Shown here: positions 390-8,190 of the stretch, in pieces
Layout of the letters: each line of letters starts with the position of its first letter
Numbering within the stretch: position 1 is the stretch's first letter
Source: a virus
Lineage: Duplodnaviria; Heunggongvirae; Uroviricota; Caudoviricetes
Length of the DNA stretch: 9,822 bases
IMG/VR virus record: IMGVR_UViG_3300011952_000030
Reading direction: 5' to 3' (one strand)
Translations under genes and position numbers: made by a program
The notes under the pieces: generated by a model
What the model saw: only the letters and a program-made list of their open reading frames with translations
The model's database searches: none
Told to the model about the DNA's origin: nothing

Positions 390-1349
390 TTAATTCACCA
401 TCAGTCTTAGAGCCAGTTCTTCCGGATAGGGATCGAAGTAATTCTGTGTAAGCAAGTAATCATTAGGATACTCACCCAGATAATGCTTCAGCAGAGTCAA
501 CGGCGCAAGAAGAGGCAATGTGCCAAAGCGATAGTTAAGTATAACCTCGGTCAACTCTTTACGCTGGCGTGTACTTAAGTAATTACTAAAATACCCCTGT
601 ATATGCATCAGCACATTCGTGTGATTTTTACGTGATGCAGGTTTTCTGAGAATCGCCATCAGCTTATCACGATACACCTCAAAGTATGATTCAAGGTCCG
701 CCCACTCGTGTATTGCAGCCACAAATGGTCCCATATCTTTATAGCCTGCCTGACTATGCGCCAACAACTGAAGCTTATAACGACTATGAAAAGCTAATAA
801 CTCTCTTCTTGATAATTTCTCCTTGTAAAGGTGATTGAGCTCATGCAAAGCAAAAACTCTTTCAACAAAATTCTCACGAAGCACTGGATCATGTAATCGC
901 CCATCCTCTTCAACCGGTAGCCAGGAAAACTTTTCCATCAAAGTGCTCGTAAATAGTCCCACTCCATCTTTACGACCTCGATTACCATTTTCATCATAGA
1001 CACGCACGCGCTCCATGCCACAGCTGGGAGATTTAGCACAAACCACAAACCCCGATACATCCTTTAATTTGTGCATATAAGAACGACTAAACTCTGTCAT
1101 TCTCTCTGTCACATCCTCATTCTGGTCGTGGCTGAAACACATCCGTATATTTCCTTGCTTCGAGCGCACAAGACGTAGAGCAGGACGCGGAACTGGCAGC
1201 CCTATAGCCATTTCCGGACATACTGGTCTGAATGTTACCCATTCCACTAATTTGTCCATTAAAAAGTCAGCTCTTTTGTGACCACCATCAAAACGAACAG
1301 CAGAACCGGCCAAACAACCGCTGATTCCAATCACAGGTTTTTTTATCAT
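390..1349 (-). CDS. DUF523 (TudS-like, Cys-rich N-terminal half) fused to DUF1722 (YbgA-like C-terminal half), 319 aa
   Basis: ORF with ATG at 1349..1347 preceded by GGGGGAGGA Shine-Dalgarno. Cys motifs (GISGCLAG, VCPEMA, CAKSPSCGME) fit DUF523; the C-terminal half resembles YbgA. Family assignment is from memory, not a search. Confidence 0.75.
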   Translation of the reverse strand: MIKKPVIGISGCLAGSAVRFDGGHKRADFLMDKLVEWVTFRPVCPEMAIGLPVPRPALRLVRSKQGNIRMCFSHDQNEDVTERMTEFSRSYMHKLKDVSGFVVCAKSPSCGMERVRVYDENGNRGRKDGVGLFTSTLMEKFSWLPVEEDGRLHDPVLRENFVERVFALHELNHLYKEKLSRRELLAFHSRYKLQLLAHSQAGYKDMGPFVAAIHEWADLESYFEVYRDKLMAILRKPASRKNHTNVLMHIQGYFSNYLSTRQRKELTEVILNYRFGTLPLLAPLTLLKHYLGEYPNDYLLTQNYFDPYPEELALRLMVN

Positions 1350-1541
1350 ATCCTCCCCCTTGACTAATTCATTAACACATAAACTGTGTAGTGCACGGAA
1401 TAAATTGCCTTTCTGACGTCATCACTGACAATTTTTCTGTTATGGACTATTCCTAATATAGTATGAAAGTTCTTTAAGTGATCGGTCGTAATCATCTATC
1501 TTTCATACTTACTCTCAACTATCAAAAGTACAGGATTGATT
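1350..1541. promoter_or_regulatory. Divergent intergenic region between the YbgA-like gene and blc, with a 10-bp inverted repeat AGTATGAAAG (1461-1470) / CTTTCATACT (1500-1509) and a TGACGTCA palindrome (1426-1433)
   Basis: Repeats read directly in sequence; promoter function is inferred from position between divergent starts. Confidence 0.3.
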
Positions 1542-2066
1542 ATGAAGTTATGGCCTGTGTTGACTGGCATTGCACTCTCTTTCACTCTTATAGCATGTAA
1601 GGCCCCGACACCACCTAAAGGTGTGCAGCCGATTACAAATTTTGACGCCAACCGCTACCTCGGAAAATGGTATGAAATAGCTCGCCTCGAGAACCGGTTC
1701 GAACGTGGTCTGGAACAGGTCAGCGCTACTTATGGAAAACGGAACGACGGAGGGATTCGTGTACTTAACCGTGGATACGATCCAACGAAAAATAAATGGA
1801 GCGAGAGCGAAGGTAAAGCATACTTTACTGGAGATACTAAAACTGCAGCGTTGAAGGTTTCGTTTTTTGGCCCCTTCTATGGTGGCTATAATGTAATCAA
1901 ACTGGATGATGAGTATAAGTATGCTCTTGTTAGTGGTTCGAACAGAGAATACCTATGGATTCTGGCAAGGACCCCAACTATTCCAGATAAAGTAAAAGCA
2001 GACTATGTGCGAACCGCTCAAAAGTTGGGATTCAATGTCAATGAATTATTATGGGTTAAACAATAA
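1542..2066 (+). CDS. blc: Blc-family outer-membrane lipocalin lipoprotein (174 aa from ATG 1542; ORF track starts at TTG 1536)
   Basis: Signal peptide with lipobox L-I-A-C, then lipocalin motifs (NFDANRYLGKWYEIARL, FERGLE, KVSFFGPFYGGYNVI, YLWILARTP) closely parallel to E. coli Blc as recalled. AGGA lies 6 nt before ATG 1542. Divergent enough from chromosomal Blc to be a paralog. Confidence 0.8.
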   Translation: MKLWPVLTGIALSFTLIACKAPTPPKGVQPITNFDANRYLGKWYEIARLENRFERGLEQVSATYGKRNDGGIRVLNRGYDPTKNKWSESEGKAYFTGDTKTAALKVSFFGPFYGGYNVIKLDDEYKYALVSGSNREYLWILARTPTIPDKVKADYVRTAQKLGFNVNELLWVKQ

Positions 2067-2616: not shown

Positions 2617-3603
2617 TTAGGCCAGCACACCAATTGCCAGCGCGCGATCGATAAATCGAAAAATCAGCTCCAGTTGGGAGCCATACTTCTCTTCAAATGC
2701 CACGGTATCCGTATGCAACTCGTCGTGATGCTTTCTGCACAAAGGCAACACAAAGAGATCATGTGCTTTGGTTCCCATTCCGCCCTGCCCGTGACCAATC
2801 AGATGATGCGGATCGTCGGCTGGCATCCCGCAGCAAGCACACGGCTGTGTCTTAACCCAGCGTGTGTATTTCTCCTTAACCCAACGGTGACGTTTAGGCA
2901 GCTTCATGAAAGATTCCGGAGACTCTGGATCAACGGTGATGCTTACCACCGTCTTTTCCTGTGATGGGTTTTGTTGCTGGTGGGCGTGAGGCAACGGTGC
3001 AAGATTTTTTGTGCGCTGTTTCAATATGCTGGTGGCGGTCTGCTCTCCCGGTACGATGTCGCTTTCGCGGTACACCGAGCAGATTTTTTCCGCTGGTAAT
3101 CCCAGCGAGCGACGTAATACCGCTTCCGGTAGCGCGTCCGCCAGCTGATTGCGGACCGCCCACCAGGATAATTCAGCCAGAGATAATTCACGCTCCTTCG
3201 TACCGCTTATTGCGTGACCGATGACGTCAATCATCCATGCTGCCAGGTTTTGATGAGCAAGTTGCTCGAGTGATTCGGATGTCTGGTCACGCAGTTGGTT
3301 GTCGCAGTGCCAGCACAACACCATTGCGCCGGTACCATATCGGTGAATAACGGTTTCNNNNNNNNNNNNNNNNNNNNNNNNNNNNNNNNNNNNNNNNNNN
3401 NNNNNNNNNNNNNNNNNNNNNNNNNNNNNNNNNNNNNNNNNNNNNNNNNNNNNNNNNNNNNNNNNNNGCAGATTACGCATGCTTTTCGGTTCCGGCTCCA
3501 CCAGTACCCGGGTATTGTGGAATACCGGCATGGATTCACGGCCCGGCTTAACGACCACCAGCCCGAGTTCCGGTACCAGAACAGGTCGAAGTAATACCCG
3601 CAC
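2617..3603 (-). CDS. Nin-region protein with C-terminal HNH-like zinc-finger motif (DUF968 / YdfU-like); reading frame passes through a 110-nt N-run so the product is incomplete
   Basis: C-terminus [18 protein letters not shown]...[10 protein letters not shown] has the CxxC...HH...CxxHH spacing typical of HNH/DUF968 proteins found just upstream of Q in Qin-type prophages. ATG 3603 sits 1 nt after the upstream gene stop. Residues within 3358-3467 are unknown. Confidence 0.55.
3358..3467. other. Run of 110 N (masked or unresolved sequence) inside the DUF968-like gene
   Basis: Directly visible. The flanking reading frame is conserved across it. Confidence 0.95.
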
Positions 3604-4417: not shown

Positions 4418-4573
4418 TTACTCCTCAGGTTCGTAAGCTGTGAAGACAGCGACCTCCGTCTGGCCGGTTCGGATTCGTACCTCGCAGAGGTCTTTCCTCG
4501 TTACCAGTGCCGTCACTATGACGGTTAAACAGATGACGATCAGGGCGATTAACATCGCCTTTTGCTGCTTCAT
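4418..4573 (-). CDS. hokD: Hok/Gef-family type I toxin (HokD/RelF-like), 51 aa from ATG 4573; the ORF track's longer 70-aa form is an in-frame upstream extension
   Basis: MKQQKAMLIALIVICLTVIVTALVTRKDLCEVRIRTGQTEVAVFTAYEPEE matches E. coli K-12 HokD as I recall it: single TM helix plus conserved Cys and C-terminal periplasmic tail. A perfect 9-bp stem-loop (4389-4410) lies just 3' of the stop. Confidence 0.85.
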   Translation of the reverse strand: MKQQKAMLIALIVICLTVIVTALVTRKDLCEVRIRTGQTEVAVFTAYEPEE

Positions 4574-4951
4574 AGCCTGCTTCTCCTTGCCTTTCGGCAC
4601 GTAAGAGGCTAACCTACATGTGTCTAGCATGAAATTGGCCTCAGATTAATGTTAAGCGTCTTGCAGGACGCGTAATGTTAACTGGGGCTTTTCTCTATCT
4701 GCCGTTGGTGTTCATGCCCGAGGCAGATAGCCTCAAGCACCCGCAGGCATTCTACTTAACTCCCGTTATCTCGCCAATATGAAATCAGTCAGAAAGGCGA
4801 TCCATAAGAATAACAGAACAATAAATTACCCGCACCACCGCAATAGTCAGCGAACATTTAAGAACCAACATGACAGCCTCCCACATTTAAAGTACGTATG
4901 TTCTAATAAATATAAATGGCATGATTCTGCGAAATACTTACATAAGCAATT

Positions 4952-4980
4952 CGCTCAAATCTGACTGTCAGTTTTGAGCG
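4952..4980 (-). terminator. Near-perfect 29-nt palindrome (CGCTCAAA t CTGAC t GTCAG t TTTGAGCG) about 40 nt downstream of the ATPase gene stop; candidate operon terminator or protein-binding site
   Basis: Read directly in sequence. Flanked by an A-rich tract on the plus side and a moderately U-rich tract on the minus side. Sits at the left edge of the AT-rich island. Confidence 0.4.
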
Positions 4981-5018
4981 AGAAAAATGATATCTACATA
5001 TCTATCAAATTACAAATC

Positions 5019-6743
5019 TTAAAGCCTAAAAAACTTATCGTCCTCCCCAAGCTCAAGCACAACACTATTATTGATGAAGTCTTGATCAATATTCTCCAAC
5101 TTGTCTTTAAGAATAGCCAATATATATTGACCATTAATCCCCGAAGCTATCTCGAATAACTTATTTATTTGATTTACATGAATTGCCTCAATTCCATCAT
5201 GAGCTATAAAACGTGGTGTTCTGGCTTCTAAAGACTCCTGGACAGATAAATAGGCAAAATCTAAAGAGGCAACCTGGGCTTTCTTTTTTCCTTCTCCCTG
5301 ATTACCTGATGTGAGCAAAGTTCCTAAAGGTTCAATGGTAAAAACGAAAGAACCGGAGGAATCTTTATAGGAAAGAATATATTCATCCTGATATAATTTT
5401 TTAGTATATAAAGAAAAATAGGAATTGAATAGCGCAAGACGTTTGTTAAAATCGTCAAGTTTAGATTTTAATCTATCTGACACATCATTAAACTTTGCTT
5501 TCAGTATATTAAAGTTGTTCTCCATCTCTTGGATTTGAAGTAGTCCAGCTTCAAGCCCACCTTTTTCTTCAAATAATGAATTTAATTTTTTTTGCATTAT
5601 TTGCAGGTCTGCCAATGTCCCATGCGAAGACAAACTCTTTAAAAGCTCTGATTCTTGAGTCAATAAGTTATTTAGTTCATCTTTATATTTGGAAATTTCT
5701 TGCAGCACTGGCTGCATTTGTTTTCTAATAAACTCAGCTTTTTTTACAAGCATTTTATTATGAAACGAAAGTAGCTCAGTAAACTCTTTGTTTAAGTTAC
5801 CTAACCGATCAGTTGCTTCTAAGTACAACTTCTGTAGATCTAGTGTATTTATATTTTCATGACTTTTTTCCAGATCTAGTATAGCCTTATCGTTTAATTT
5901 TTGCTTAAACTCCAAAGATGATAGTGTGATAGAAACTTCACTAATTTTAATTTTTAACTCATTTAACTCAGCAAGCATATCATTATAAGAGTCTGCCACT
6001 TGAAAATTAGAAATTAACTCTTCTTGTGCTATAATATCTCTATTTATAATTGCAATAGCTTGTTCCAAAGCATTCTTTGAGCGATGGCGAGTAATTACTT
6101 CATAATCGGATTTCGCCAGTTTATAGGCTTTAGTCACTGACTGTTTTTCATCCAGAATCTGTGAGTTACCGAACCCAAACATAAACAGATTTAACGTTTC
6201 ATATTGTGTATTAGAACCCATTTTTATCGTTTTTAATGCGTTCGACATCTTGTCATGCGTATTTCGAATAACACGTCCCATAATCTCTCGTATGGTCGGT
6301 TTTATCGCGGAATCAAGATATAATGTTCTTTTTAAAGCCTCGTTGAAATCTTTAGCCTTCGTATAGGACTCTTCATTTATTGAGGCTATAACCTTCGTTT
6401 TATTAGTCTCAGATGTAATTTTACGCTTAATTTTTATTACTGGTGCAGTTTTATTATTCAAATCTTTTGTGAGAATTAAACAAAACTCAATCTCGTTCTC
6501 TATCAAATAATTTTTTATAACCGAATTTTCTTTCTTGAATTCAGGATCGGTATAAAAATTCAGTTGTTCTGCTCCAAAACAAAAATCTAAAGCTCTTAAT
6601 ACAGTAGTTTTTCCCACACCATTTCCAGTTTGCTCTTTGCTGGAGGTGTTTCGGTCAATAATCAAATTAACGCCAATGTGAAATTCGATATCACGAATCA
6701 CTCCAAGCCTGAAAGAACTGACTATTAGCCGTTTCAAAAACAT
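5019..6743 (-). CDS. P-loop ABC/SMC-like ATPase with long central coiled coil, 574 aa; last gene of the AT-rich operon
   Basis: N-terminal head typical of SMC/RecF/OLD-type ABC ATPases, with Walker A GNGVGKTT (aa 40-47, nt 6603-6626). Lys/Glu/Leu-rich heptad region at about aa 230-470. Degenerate signature-like TSGNQGEG (aa 479-485) and Walker-B-like FIAHD (aa 512-516, nt 5196-5210). ATG 6743 overlaps the upstream gene by 10 nt. Confidence 0.8.
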   Translation of the reverse strand: MFLKRLIVSSFRLGVIRDIEFHIGVNLIIDRNTSSKEQTGNGVGKTTVLRALDFCFGAEQLNFYTDPEFKKENSVIKNYLIENEIEFCLILTKDLNNKTAPVIKIKRKITSETNKTKVIASINEESYTKAKDFNEALKRTLYLDSAIKPTIREIMGRVIRNTHDKMSNALKTIKMGSNTQYETLNLFMFGFGNSQILDEKQSVTKAYKLAKSDYEVITRHRSKNALEQAIAIINRDIIAQEELISNFQVADSYNDMLAELNELKIKISEVSITLSSLEFKQKLNDKAILDLEKSHENINTLDLQKLYLEATDRLGNLNKEFTELLSFHNKMLVKKAEFIRKQMQPVLQEISKYKDELNNLLTQESELLKSLSSHGTLADLQIMQKKLNSLFEEKGGLEAGLLQIQEMENNFNILKAKFNDVSDRLKSKLDDFNKRLALFNSYFSLYTKKLYQDEYILSYKDSSGSFVFTIEPLGTLLTSGNQGEGKKKAQVASLDFAYLSVQESLEARTPRFIAHDGIEAIHVNQINKLFEIASGINGQYILAILKDKLENIDQDFINNSVVLELGEDDKFFRL

Positions 6744-6970
6744 AATATCAAATCTCCATTTTCGTTAGCATCAACCAGGCCTAATAAATATAGCCAATTT
6801 AAAGTGTAAATATATTGCGTGAATGAAGAGTTGTTATTTTTAGATTTGAATTCATTATACAAGTCTATAATATCAACATACGAATAAGCATTTGAACTCA
6901 TGCATTCTAATAACCGAGCTCCCAGGTAATACAAGGTTTGGCTTGGTTTTGTTACATCAGAGATAATCAT
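6734..6970 (-). CDS. Small 78-aa protein, third gene of the AT-rich operon; possible adaptor or winged-helix-like component
   Basis: ATG 6970 overlaps the upstream stop in an ATGA arrangement; its own stop overlaps the ATPase start. Codon usage matches the neighbours. No motif recognised. Confidence 0.6.
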   Translation of the reverse strand: MIISDVTKPSQTLYYLGARLLECMSSNAYSYVDIIDLYNEFKSKNNNSSFTQYIYTLNWLYLLGLVDANENGDLILCF

Positions 6971-7563
6971 ATTGGTTTTTCCAGAATCTTACACTCTACG
7001 AATGCATGATAAACGATAAAAGAAGCATGGCATTCGATTTCTTCGCTTGTGTAATTCATTGCCATAAGAGAATTTAAGCATTTCTTAATGATGTGCTCTA
7101 TTACACTGTCTATTATCCAATCTGCAAACTCTCTTACCAATTGAATCTTTAAATTATTCCGTTCCTGAGCATCCTTGCAGCTCTTATACGCTTCTCTATG
7201 TTTAAGCAATAAATCTCCTTGACAATCAAGATATCGTGAATTGATGCTTTTCAGTGCCGTTTCCTTAGCAGTAGGCATACTTTCATTTAATGTTTCATAC
7301 GCTTTATCTATCATCGAAGAATATAGATAGAACCCTTCAATACGTTCTCTATGTTTTATAACATCATTGAAGTCTATTTTATTCTCAATATCATATGGCT
7401 CGTAGTCATTGTTTGTACGAGGATCAATAACATTCGAATCAACTAAAATACCAACAAGATCCATAAAAATCGATGGAGACTTTATAATATCAACAGAGTT
7501 AGAATCGACAACCACCTGCACATTACGTGAGTAATTCCCTGACCTTTGAGTAACACCAACCAT
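6967..7563 (-). CDS. 198-aa soluble protein of unknown function, second gene of the AT-rich operon
   Basis: ATG 7563 lies 2 nt after the upstream TGA; its stop overlaps the next ATG. Acidic, with five Cys but no recognisable nuclease or protease motif. Confidence 0.65.
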   Translation of the reverse strand: MVGVTQRSGNYSRNVQVVVDSNSVDIIKSPSIFMDLVGILVDSNVIDPRTNNDYEPYDIENKIDFNDVIKHRERIEGFYLYSSMIDKAYETLNESMPTAKETALKSINSRYLDCQGDLLLKHREAYKSCKDAQERNNLKIQLVREFADWIIDSVIEHIIKKCLNSLMAMNYTSEEIECHASFIVYHAFVECKILEKPI

Positions 7564-7565
7564 GA

Positions 7566-7811
7566 TCAGCCTCGCTTGTTTTCATTATTTCCAAAAACGA
7601 CCGTCTGATTATTTTTTGAATGGCTACCGCTTTTTTGAATTATTGTATGCCCTGAACTTTTTTTATTAACAATAAATGTACCTAAAAATGTTACAAGAAA
7701 GCTACCAGAAGTGAACATCAATGGCACACTATTGAAGTGATATGCAGCAAAGCCAGCGCAAGCAACGAATGTCAAAGAAAATATTCTAATCATAATTCGG
7801 ATCATAGCCAC
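7566..7811 (-). CDS. Small two-TM membrane protein (81 aa from GTG 7811, or 79 aa from ATG 7805), first gene of the AT-rich operon
   Basis: Two hydrophobic helices (about aa 8-27 and 30-48) followed by a polar Lys/Ser/Asn-rich tail. AGGA lies 8 nt upstream of ATG 7805. Confidence 0.55.
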   Translation of the reverse strand: MAMIRIMIRIFSLTFVACAGFAAYHFNSVPLMFTSGSFLVTFLGTFIVNKKSSGHTIIQKSGSHSKNNQTVVFGNNENKRG

Positions 7812-7899
7812 ATCCTGTAAGTACTGTTGTCATCTTTTAGTGATTCTTGAATCCCATACTATACAAAAGCTTATCCATCTTTTGTACAAGCTTCCGCTT

Positions 7900-7990
7900 T
7901 GAAAGTGACATTATAAAGTAACTACAACTTAGAGTGCATCCCCCTAAATATCTCCGATGGTGATAGTTGCTGGCTACAACTTACTTCCAT
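7900..7990 (-). promoter_or_regulatory. Putative promoter/operator of the AT-rich operon: consensus -10 TATAAT (minus strand, plus coordinates 7915..7910) and a perfect 10-bp direct repeat CTACAACTTA at 7922-7931 and 7974-7983
   Basis: Hexamer and repeats read directly. The -35 is weak (TGCACT), so activity is uncertain. The repeats are spaced 52 bp apart, about five helical turns. Confidence 0.3.
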
Positions 7991-8028
7991 AACCAACTAA
8001 CTGGCTTGCTCTGCGTTAATTAGTGCAT

Positions 8029-8085
8029 NNNNNNNNNNNNNNNNNNNNNNNNNNNNNNNNNNNNNNNNNNNNNNNNNNNNNNNNN
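8029..8085. other. Run of 57 N (masked or unresolved sequence) upstream of the AT-rich operon
   Basis: Directly visible. Flanked by ...TAGTGCAT and TGCATAGG... Confidence 0.95.
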
Positions 8086-8190
8086 TGCATAGGAATGTCA
8101 GCATTATCCGCTCTTGGCACAAACCAAACGACCACGCTAGCGCTAATCTTGTGCCACGAAAATGTCAATTCACATCTGAACTAATGCTCT

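Follow-up and report, generated by a model that had tools for sequence, protein, structure and literature searches.

A shared N/Q/G-rich motif may join a separate, proposed membrane effector to an ABC-three component, short-Lamassu-like defence operon of a Qin-like prophage

The operon and its proposed function

The subject of this analysis is a 9,822-nucleotide stretch of Caudoviricetes DNA, IMG/VR virus record IMGVR_UViG_3300011952_000030, which we call the window and which is meant at its full length throughout. It holds an operon of four minus-strand genes that code for a small membrane protein, a CTD10 protein, an MC6 protein and an ABC ATPase. We argue that this is an abortive-infection (Abi) defence operon of the ABC-three component system (ABC-3C)/short-Lamassu type, in which the HNH or SMEK effector has been replaced by a separate effector with two transmembrane (TM) helices, joined through an amyloid-like motif. 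Taken as a whole we rate this reading an even call. The observation that carries it is a short motif borne by both the C-terminal tail of the membrane protein and the N-terminal leader of the CTD10 protein. At least nine classes of this motif pair occur; they differ between lineages and match within each locus. The pairing is specific, it co-varies, and it is selected at the protein level. The type of system is known. What is new, in the literature searched, is a CTD10-only adaptor and a separate minimal membrane protein that are joined by a co-varying motif. The genes and the two motifs of the window are as follows.

7566..7805, minus strand: small membrane protein gene, 79 aa from ATG 7805 (81 aa from GTG 7811 in the list of open reading frames)
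7584..7643, minus strand: tail motif of the membrane protein, residues I55-N74, IIQKSGSHSKNNQTVVFGNN
6967..7563, minus strand: CTD10 protein gene, 198 aa, candidate LmuA-like adaptor without an enzymatic N-terminal domain
7495..7554, minus strand: N-terminal leader motif of the CTD10 protein, residues V4-S23, VTQRSGNYSRNVQVVVDSNS
6734..6970, minus strand: gene of the middle component MC6, 78 aa, in the position that LmuC has in Lamassu
5019..6743, minus strand: gene of the SMC/Rad50-like ABC ATPase of the DUF2326/YydD family, 574 aa

Motif pairing between the membrane protein and the CTD10 protein

The tail and the leader have the spacing Q-x-x-G-x-x-S-x-N-x-Q in common, with conserved positions on both sides. 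Over the full length of the 2-TM proteins, their alignment has no invariant columns other than G60, S63, N65 and Q67, all of them motif residues. On the other side of the pair, leader residues Q6, G9, S12, N14 and Q16 are nearly invariant in 11 CTD10 homologues. In the window the tail scores 48 against its leader; 2000 shuffles average 20.7, and none of them scores as high. In 8 of 8 loci the within-locus score is higher than that of any of 2000 shuffles that preserve composition, and three outlying lineages score high solely with their own partner. Representative pairs are listed by locus.

L011: tail of the small TM protein KQKQKIGKEGTGYQTGSGGTININ; CTD10 N-terminus KQKQNIGKEGTGYQTGDNGVININ
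L007: tail of the small TM protein DRSTYVEQANDITIN; CTD10 N-terminus DRSTNIGTAQTVTIN
L029: tail of the small TM protein GDNFSSGRDMTINN; CTD10 N-terminus GNNYKSDNDLTVNN
L098: tail of the small TM protein SNSLSNRGKVNGNMIGEQ; CTD10 N-terminus TNNLNNKGQVQGDMIGTQ
L112, L143, L146 and L147: tail with a QQTHSGxGxNINAGxDV-type motif; CTD10 N-terminus with the same motif type

A motif of the last of these types, from L112 or L146, reads QQTHSGNGHNINAGGDV.

The arrangement is general among short CTD10 genes. Directly upstream of them, abutting or overlapping, lies a small open reading frame (ORF) that codes for one or two TM helices and whose tail resembles the N-terminus of its own partner. Such a partner ORF with a matching tail is present in all of the full-length short-type loci scored by the pipeline (34/34, with z-scores of about 3 to 15). 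A TM helix is called in 33 of these 34 partners, and in L150 it is called at a lower threshold only. Two further pairs, in L087 and L094, were recovered by a pattern search. Four of the short-type relatives found in a database-wide search (see below) were then chosen prospectively, by their leaders alone. In the three with available DNA, the gene upstream codes for a 1-TM protein whose tail matches (z 10.4, 8.5 and 3.7); in the fourth, a gene of 58 aa overlaps from upstream. A set of 99 HNH/SMEK loci, put through the same pipeline, served as the negative control. Their median z is -0.01, and 52 of them have no abutting ORF. Two scores reach 3.5 or more, neither from a TM protein, and the three small abutting TM ORFs found among the 99 have no matching tail.

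The partners also vary together. In the enteric class, with the invariant core removed, similarity to the own partner is 6.18 against 1.29 for other partners (permutation 14/10000), a test that is inflated by shared ancestry, its effective sample being about five sub-clades. As an example, a tail with QTVVF goes with an N-terminus with QVVVD, and a tail with QNNYF goes with QNNYL. In the window motifs 4 of the 9 identical residues share a codon, and Ser has the codon AGC on one side and TCA on the other. Since identical residues often stand on different codons, the similarity must be held at the protein level and does not come from a recent duplication. When all six-frame ORFs of a locus were compared with its CTD10 leader, the TM protein matched best in 11 of 13 loci.

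Three other accounts of the shared motif were considered and set aside. The differing codons at identical residues rule out recent DNA duplication or gene conversion as its source. A third copy of the motif elsewhere in the loci was rejected, the two ties being chance matches. Programmed frameshifting that fuses the two genes was considered and dropped, as their relative frames and overlaps differ between loci; the small gene and the CTD10 gene of the window are separated by a 2-nt gap, and elsewhere they overlap. The link between the two motifs is unreported in the literature searched, a search that did not extend to the founding ABC-3C paper (Krishnan et al. 2020, NAR).

The small membrane protein

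We propose that the 79-aa membrane protein is the effector. It has two hydrophobic helices, at about residues 5-23 and 29-47, followed by a polar C-terminal tail. From the clustering of K and R behind the last TM helix, the tail is predicted to lie in the cytoplasm, on the same side as the CTD10 protein. The protein belongs to no Pfam family, and its match to Hol_Tox is weak (E 0.014). Homologues at about 40% identity are found in other operons. The 2-TM family comprises 42 database clusters, all from Enterobacterales and all of about 80 aa, and in 7 of 7 places examined its members stand beside CTD10, MC6 and DUF2326 genes.

A TM helix of similar sequence (SGWxIALLSLIVNxLQ), with a K/N-rich linker behind it, recurs in the 1-TM partners of several different motif classes. 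This helix was seen in L011 (301-489), L029 (3901-4152), L111, L112, L143, L146, L147 and L150. A similar TM helix across classes implies that the membrane part was conserved and the tail motif was exchanged.

The CTD10 protein and the effector forms of its family

The CTD10 domain of the window protein covers residues 36-195 (Pfam PF20275, E 1.6e-10, 42.1 bits against a cut-off of 28.1). Just a leader of about 35 aa precedes it, and an N-terminal enzymatic domain is missing. Homologues of this protein are all 195-199 aa long. In most loci, by comparison, the CTD10 protein has 264-297 aa and an N-terminal HNH nuclease domain. A preliminary description of the window had stated that the operon has no HNH; this is true of the window and does not extend to the canonical relatives, which do have HNH fused to CTD10. 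The 2-TM peptide that stands in its place here was named in that description but given no interpretation. The PADLOC candidate PDC-M68A is this HNH-bearing protein of canonical loci (match 4.5e-28), and its profile matches none of the three proteins that the operon encodes besides the ATPase. The AlphaFold2 (AF2) model of the window CTD10 protein has a predicted local distance difference test score (pLDDT) of 78, with residues 29-41 and 69-190 folded into a bundle of helices. A sequence-profile search of the Protein Data Bank (PDB) with CTD10 returned noise only. Foldseek of the model against the PDB, Lamassu entries included, found nothing with E below 0.9.

A CTD10 ORF is present in 160 of 162 loci. 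Among these 160, 98 have an HNH effector, 8 have SMEK, 34 are short proteins with a TM partner, and 20 are fragments or unclassified. L113 is a possible exception to the pairing: its CTD10 ORF is truncated to 169 aa, has no TM partner, lacks the first ~50 profile positions and looks degenerate. An exhaustive HMMER search brought up 501 CTD10 relatives among 1.84 billion representatives, and of the best 149 of these, 141 are short-type, with leaders of 20-45 aa rich in N, I, Q and G. The leader-bearing branch numbers at least 141 clusters at 50% identity, with nine or more classes of paired motifs, and ranges over Enterobacterales, Acinetobacter, Bacteroidota, gut and environmental metagenomes, prophages and satellites.

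The ATPases of TM-pair loci are intermixed with those of HNH-type loci. The ATPase of L146 is 59% identical to an HNH-type ATPase and about 35% identical to that of the window. This interspersion implies that the effector module was exchanged repeatedly. It also rules out a single origin of the TM-pair architecture.

The CTD10 proteins with SMEK_N include those of six viral contigs. In L060 and L157-L162 (viral contigs) these proteins are 321-326 aa long with an N-terminal SMEK_N domain (Pfam E ~1e-40), and the L157 protein also matches the PADLOC model 'Aga_REase-PNTD1-PNTD2' at 1.4e-22. With SMEK_N-CTD10 the system has a third form of effector, and it occurs for the most part on viral contigs.

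A 2025 Lamassu preprint (bioRxiv 10.1101/2025.04.02.646746) describes HNH and SMEK as effectors specific to 'short Lamassu', and one clade, 'Clade O', as apparently effector-less. The HNH/SMEK-type ABC-3C relatives of our operon are probably this 'short Lamassu', and the clade of the window, which fits the description of Clade O, may be that clade. The words 'transmembrane' and 'amyloid' are absent from that preprint.

The ATPase, MC6 and family membership

Judged by their family matches, three of the four genes are an ABC-3C system with the families DUF2326, MC6 and CTD10. The ATPase matches Pfam DUF2326 above the curated cut-off (E 4.2e-14) and the PADLOC candidate PDC-M68B at 1.3e-41. The MC6 protein matches Pfam PF20293 (E 1.6e-13, 50.8 bits against a cut-off of 27.2). 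RefSeq names the ABC-3C proteins of the operon 'ABC-three component system' and the small gene 'hypothetical', and a review places ABC-3C inside the Lamassu superfamily (PMC10586767). The preliminary description had proposed an undescribed system. That claim has to be given up, given curated-threshold Pfam matches for three of the four proteins, the RefSeq names, the PDC-M68B match and the place of ABC-3C within Lamassu. Profile checks of the kind that it called for do assign three of the four proteins to known families, and leave the small protein outside Pfam.

The order of the genes is stable. The MC6 gene lies directly upstream of the ATPase gene in 81 of 83 loci, and MC6 together with CTD10 does so in about 80 of 83. 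A collection of 80 genomic loci with ATPase relatives was made by a contig scan with an alignment as the query; a single ATPase sequence as query gave no matches.

The description of the ATPase as an SMC/Rad50-like protein with a long coiled coil that resembles LmuB stands up well in the structural comparison. In its AF2 model (pLDDT 81) the ABC head is split, and the long coiled coil, which is antiparallel, takes up about residues 194-451 (window 5391-6164). The Walker A motif G40-N41-x-x-G44-K45-T46-T47 covers residues 40-47 (window 6603-6626), and K45 is indeed the invariant Walker A lysine. The C-terminal half of the head, the DUF2326 region, covers residues 447-573 (window 5025-5405). Foldseek of the model against the PDB finds the B. 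subtilis YydD model 9a6c first (E 1e-20), then LmuB of the Lamassu entries 9uxh, 9hqx and 9hqu (E 5e-12 to 7e-11), and after these the heads of SMC, cohesin, condensin, Rad50 and JetC. With 9a6c as the top neighbour, one can suggest that yydB-yydD of B. subtilis 168 is an ABC-3C/Lamassu-like system as well. The PADLOC LmuB profile is weak for the window ATPase (6e-4) and reaches 1e-13 to 1e-15 for family relatives. A sequence-profile search of PDB sequences with the ATPase gave nothing at E 0.01, an NCBIfam search gave no matches, and the sole PHROGs match is that of the ATPase to a family of unknown function. Septu and PARIS were considered as homes for the operon and ruled out: the PADLOC profiles give no match to PtuA, PtuB or AriB, and the AriA match to the ATPase (E 6e-4) is confined to the P-loop stretch 41-89.

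Amyloid-like character and a possible mechanism

The paired segments have a mean length of 18 aa (range 15-26; 15-20 in most classes). They are enriched 4.0-fold in N, 2.8-fold in Q, 1.9-fold in G and 1.3-fold in I; K stands at 0.84-fold, L at 0.12-fold and P at 0. The 141 CTD10 leaders show the same compositional trend. In the AF2 monomer, residues 1-25 of the leader have pLDDT below 50 and are flexible, ahead of the confident helical bundle. Bacterial amyloid signalling sequence (BASS) motifs have about 20-25 aa, are rich in N, Q and G (plus V and I) and are poor in P, L and K. Their genes are collinear and often overlap, the C-terminus of the effector matches the N-terminus of the receptor, and fused 'all-in-one' relatives exist (Dyrka et al., bioRxiv 10.1101/2020.01.06.895854).

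We infer the following mechanism, from the defence phenotype and its trigger through direct contact of the motifs and the amyloid nature of that contact to the membrane damage. The DUF2326 ATPase (LmuB-like) and MC6 (LmuC-like) would form a sensor that holds the CTD10 protein (LmuA-like). When a phage DNA structure is sensed ATP would be hydrolysed, and the CTD10 proteins would be released and oligomerise. Their clustered N-terminal leaders would nucleate a cross-beta (amyloid-like) fold, and this fold would recruit and template the cytoplasmic tails of the inner-membrane protein. The TM hairpins would then cluster and permeabilise the membrane, and the cell would die before phage release.

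Each half of this scenario has a known counterpart. Lamassu is an abortive-infection system that requires its ATPase, its effector and LmuC. There LmuA has a C-terminal domain for oligomerisation that LmuC and two LmuB protomers keep sequestered, and DNA-end sensing with ATP hydrolysis frees LmuA to form the active tetramer. In signalling based on NOD-like receptors (NLRs), induced oligomerisation of the receptor nucleates the amyloid fold (bioRxiv 10.1101/2024.11.07.622273). Since LmuA is activated by release and oligomerisation, and since oligomerisation nucleates amyloid in NLR systems, we argue that templating is the most economical model. That amyloid-type, templated cross-beta signalling operates within Lamassu/ABC-3C, and that the leader-bearing branch has outsourced its effector to a membrane protein of 47-110 aa, is a proposal we make tentatively and rate somewhat short of even.

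Several points weigh against the amyloid-linked defence reading. CTD10 has no detectable fold similarity to the solved C-terminal domains of LmuA, so the release-and-oligomerise step is transferred by analogy. The small proteins are one or two plain TM helices with no Bell- or HeLo-type domain, so their tie to the known amyloid-controlled executioners is by analogy only. The beta strands that AF2 places in leader residues 4-25 of the monomer are weak and of low confidence. Motif similarity is modest in some loci (z 3.5-4.3 in L004 and L090, 3.0-3.2 in L095 and L096, 2.4 in L094 and 3.7 in L178), and the ancestry effect in the enteric test belongs here too. No published studies of DUF2326 or PDC-M68 systems were found in the literature searched.

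Alternative explanations

The evidence for motif pairing is equally compatible with ordinary stoichiometric pairing of beta strands in place of templated amyloid. One can imagine a version where the CTD10 leader restrains the tail of a membrane toxin, as an antitoxin does, and activation of the sensor withdraws the leader. In another version the pairing merely tethers the sensor complex at the membrane. The motifs are short, as most classes have only 15-20 residues. The TM helices are genuine, which means the small proteins are probably always embedded in the membrane, and an amyloid-driven release of a buried helix, as in HET-S or Bab, would not be needed. However, the N/Q/G bias, the lack of Pro, the depletion of Leu and the Gly-punctuated strands are the signature of BASS and of fungal amyloid signalling sequences (FASS), and they are not that of a generic strand interface. 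Furthermore, the two sides of a heterodimer need not be alike, and self-similarity is what homotypic stacking predicts. We regard stoichiometric pairing as unlikely, with enough in its favour to be taken seriously. It is also conceivable that the motifs never touch. Tail and leader would then compete for one pocket on MC6 or on the coiled coil of the ATPase, and activation would swap them. Co-evolution with such a pocket would also give similarity and co-variation within a locus, which is a further point against templating, and in Lamassu both LmuB and LmuC contact LmuA extensively. The difficulty is that the motifs are very diverse (at least nine classes, 141 leaders) but MC6 and the ATPase are comparatively conserved. 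The pocket would need to be gained and re-tuned repeatedly. TM-pair ATPases are also up to 59% identical to HNH-type ATPases that go with no such leader. A shared pocket is improbable on these grounds.

The remaining alternatives deny the membrane protein its role or the operon its function. If the CTD10-only variant were truly effector-less, like 'Clade O', the system would not kill the cell but could, for instance, bind or block phage DNA in the manner of SMC proteins, and the membrane protein would be an accessory. This does not agree with the distribution of the partners. There is no full-length short-type CTD10 gene with readable upstream DNA that lacks one (34 found automatically, two by pattern search and three prospectively). 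In the 99 HNH/SMEK loci just 3 small TM ORFs abut, none with a matching tail. The most conserved residues of the TM protein are also exactly those it has in common with the CTD10 leader. We find an effector-less system very improbable. Finally, the operon might not be for defence at all. It could be a stabilisation module of the addiction or toxin-antitoxin kind, or serve prophage lysis or exclusion. The corresponding slot of K-12 Qin does hold the addiction-type cargo relBE and hokD, and the weak match of the small protein (E 0.014) is to a holin-like toxin. Yet the relatives of this family are experimentally validated Abi systems that require all their components, and the operon is found in P4 and P2 defence hotspots and on non-phage islands. 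We give this last scenario very little credence.

Operon layout and prophage context

The four minus-strand ORFs and all three junctions between them are as the preliminary description gave them. Read from the sequence, the junctions are TGA-tc-ATG, ATGA and a 10-nt overlap (ATGTTTTTGA). The small gene had been started at GTG 7811. The ORF is present, and its start was shifted to ATG 7805. An AGGA lies 7 nt upstream of this codon, homologue alignments begin at that Met, and the RefSeq gene has 240 nt, so ATG 7805 is most likely the start and the product has 79 aa. The contrast in GC content (GC) is likewise real, with 0.332 for the operon (0.30-0.34 for individual genes) against flank means of 0.49-0.50 and local peaks of 0.52-0.55. 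A hand count had put the operon at 25-30%, which is too low. Two further features lie around the genes.

4880..8190, no strand: AT-rich cargo block between hokD and the DUF977 gene, GC 0.338 against 0.50 and 0.49 in the flanks
7910..7915, minus strand: perfect TATAAT hexamer, a possible -10 element ~100 nt upstream of the first gene, with a weak -35, as read from the sequence

A consensus scan for promoters and terminators found 19 sites with 13 expected and is uninformative in such AT-rich DNA; TATAAT 7910..7915 is absent from its list. The window has masked runs of N at 3358-3467, inside a DUF968/ydfU-like gene, and at 8029-8085, in the intergenic DNA upstream of the operon. Because of the second run the promoter region is only partly readable in the window. 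The identical locus L001 carries the full sequence.

An identical locus occurs in a Qin-like prophage of E. coli WP2-W18-ESBL-08. Upstream of the operon are DUF977, replication genes, YdaT and Cro/CI, and downstream are hokD, rem, ydfU and Q. The prophage context proposed earlier, between the replication module and the hok/Q region, is confirmed at this locus. In K-12 Qin the corresponding slot has relBE adjoining hokD, as the preliminary description stated. Other related prophages have in this slot a methyltransferase, single hypothetical genes, an integrase-bearing insert or a series of small genes. The evidence supports the view that the AT-rich operon is of foreign origin and that the Qin-like prophage carries it as cargo in a variable slot. 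It is carried by 17 of 5426 complete E. coli genomes, and the same operon sequence is found in IMG/VR viral contigs.

Conserved synteny of the four genes and a hotspot context had been put forward as checks, and both were found. The four genes form a conserved unit in the 7 of 7 places already mentioned. The unit is present in a P4-like satellite, between the integrase and psu/ogr, and in a P2-like prophage, between portal Q and the replicase gpA. In P2 itself this interval carries tin and old. These P4-like and P2-like sites are known defence hotspots. The unit is also found on islands beside smpB/ssrA, adjoining AbiH in one place, near RHS toxin/immunity genes and insertion sequence (IS) elements, and in relatives at ~50% identity. 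With homology and context on its side the defence or Abi interpretation is well supported.

Several observations on the neighbourhood should be recorded. In the window hokD is intact at 4418-4573 on the minus strand, directly downstream of the operon (MKQQKAMLIALIVICLTVIVTALVTRKDLCEVRIRTGQTEVAVFTAYEPEE), so that, like its counterpart in K-12 Qin, the cargo slot has a type I toxin gene at its side. A YbgA-family (DUF1722-like) gene at 390-1349 (minus strand) and a lipocalin gene at 1536-2066 (plus strand) lie between the Q antiterminator and the lysis genes; this region has GC 0.29-0.45 and looks like a second cargo ('moron') insert of the same prophage. The match to the operon region in E. coli KK05-19 (NZ_CM144239.1 4724335-4728985) contains an IS3-family element, and this natural insertion may disrupt the operon there. 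In Dickeya dadantii L168/L169 (6832-7070) MC6 is split into ORFs of 57 aa and 25 aa and the TM, CTD10 and ATPase genes are intact, so this may be a decaying copy. An RHS toxin gene and an Imm-NTF2 immunity gene stand just downstream of the operon in L168. In L175, a metagenomic contig, a SIR2_2-domain gene (1593-2678) is directly upstream of the TM/CTD10/MC6/ATPase operon and a UDG-family gene is further upstream on the opposite strand. This neighbourhood looks like a defence island.

Significance

Lamassu-type systems are found in ~10% of prokaryotic genomes, and their activation logic was solved only in 2025. The pairing described here offers an answer to the apparently effector-less clade: if the proposal is true, an amyloid branch would explain Lamassu 'Clade O'. 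If the motifs do template, this would be the second bacterial immune system with amyloid signalling and the first in which it is coupled to an ATPase complex. Amyloid immune signalling would then extend from sensors of the NLR and TPR-GreA/B-PIN (TGP) kinds to SMC-type sensors, and to ordinary unicellular bacteria. BASS motifs are reported by Dyrka et al. (bioRxiv 10.1101/2020.01.06.895854) as confined to multicellular bacteria, and the proposal, if true, would contradict that restriction. Neither the small protein nor CTD10 without HNH has a PADLOC model, so current detection tools would miss the effector gene or call the system incomplete. A 79-aa membrane protein and an 18-aa motif make a compact and testable E. 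coli model of an SMC-like DNA sensor that signals to the membrane.

Comparison with known systems

The closest relative by sequence is PDC-M68, which consists of HNH-CTD10, MC6 and DUF2326. It has the same ATPase family (31-59% identity), the same MC6 and CTD10, the same gene order and the same overlapping junctions. The difference is that the CTD10 protein of the window lacks HNH, has an N/Q/G-rich leader of 25-35 aa in its place and is accompanied by an extra small TM gene upstream. The B. subtilis pair YydD-YydB (9a6c, an integrative model) is the top structural match of the ATPase, and the Joint Genome Institute (JGI) calls family members 'YydD (DUF2326 family)'. In that case the partner is YydB.

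Lamassu LmuA-LmuC-LmuB (DdmABC), for which there are cryo-electron microscopy structures from Salmonella and Vibrio, has the same order of an effector with a C-terminal domain, a small middle protein and an SMC-like ATPase. The ATPase fold is similar, at the Foldseek values given above. The effector here would be a separate membrane protein rather than an enzyme fused to the C-terminal domain, and the fold of CTD10 has no detectable match in LmuA.

On the amyloid side the only experimental precedent in phage defence is Bab/Agp of E. coli (bioRxiv 10.1101/2024.11.07.622273). A small membrane-targeting protein and a TGP sensor share the motif BASS11, and beta-breaker mutations in this motif abolish abortive infection. 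ABC ATPases, Lamassu, CTD10 and HNH go unmentioned in that paper, and no link between amyloid and Lamassu was found in the literature searched. As in our operon, the Bab and Agp genes are adjacent and lie in prophage defence hotspots. In both cases the small effector, here a proposed one, has an N-terminal hydrophobic element and a C-terminal motif of ~20 aa, and the protein on the sensor side carries the matching motif at its N-terminus. The outcome for Bab/Agp is Abi with membrane alterations. Bab has a Bell-like helical domain whereas the proteins described here are plain TM hairpins, and the likeness drawn here is one of layout.

The HET-S/NWD2 and Bell/NLR BASS pairs are alike in having adjacent collinear genes, a motif at the C-terminus of the effector and the N-terminus of the receptor, an N/Q/G bias and a depletion of P and L. 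Their 'all-in-one' relatives correspond to HNH-CTD10 and SMEK-CTD10 in sister loci. Their receptors, however, are NLRs with NB-ARC or NACHT domains, and here the corresponding part is an SMC-type ATPase complex. The HeLo or Bell helical domain of the amyloid effectors is replaced by plain TM helices, and the partner is a CTD10 adaptor instead of an NLR or TGP protein. The hosts differ as well, the operons described here being found in unicellular Enterobacterales, Acinetobacter and Bacteroidota and in their phages and satellites.

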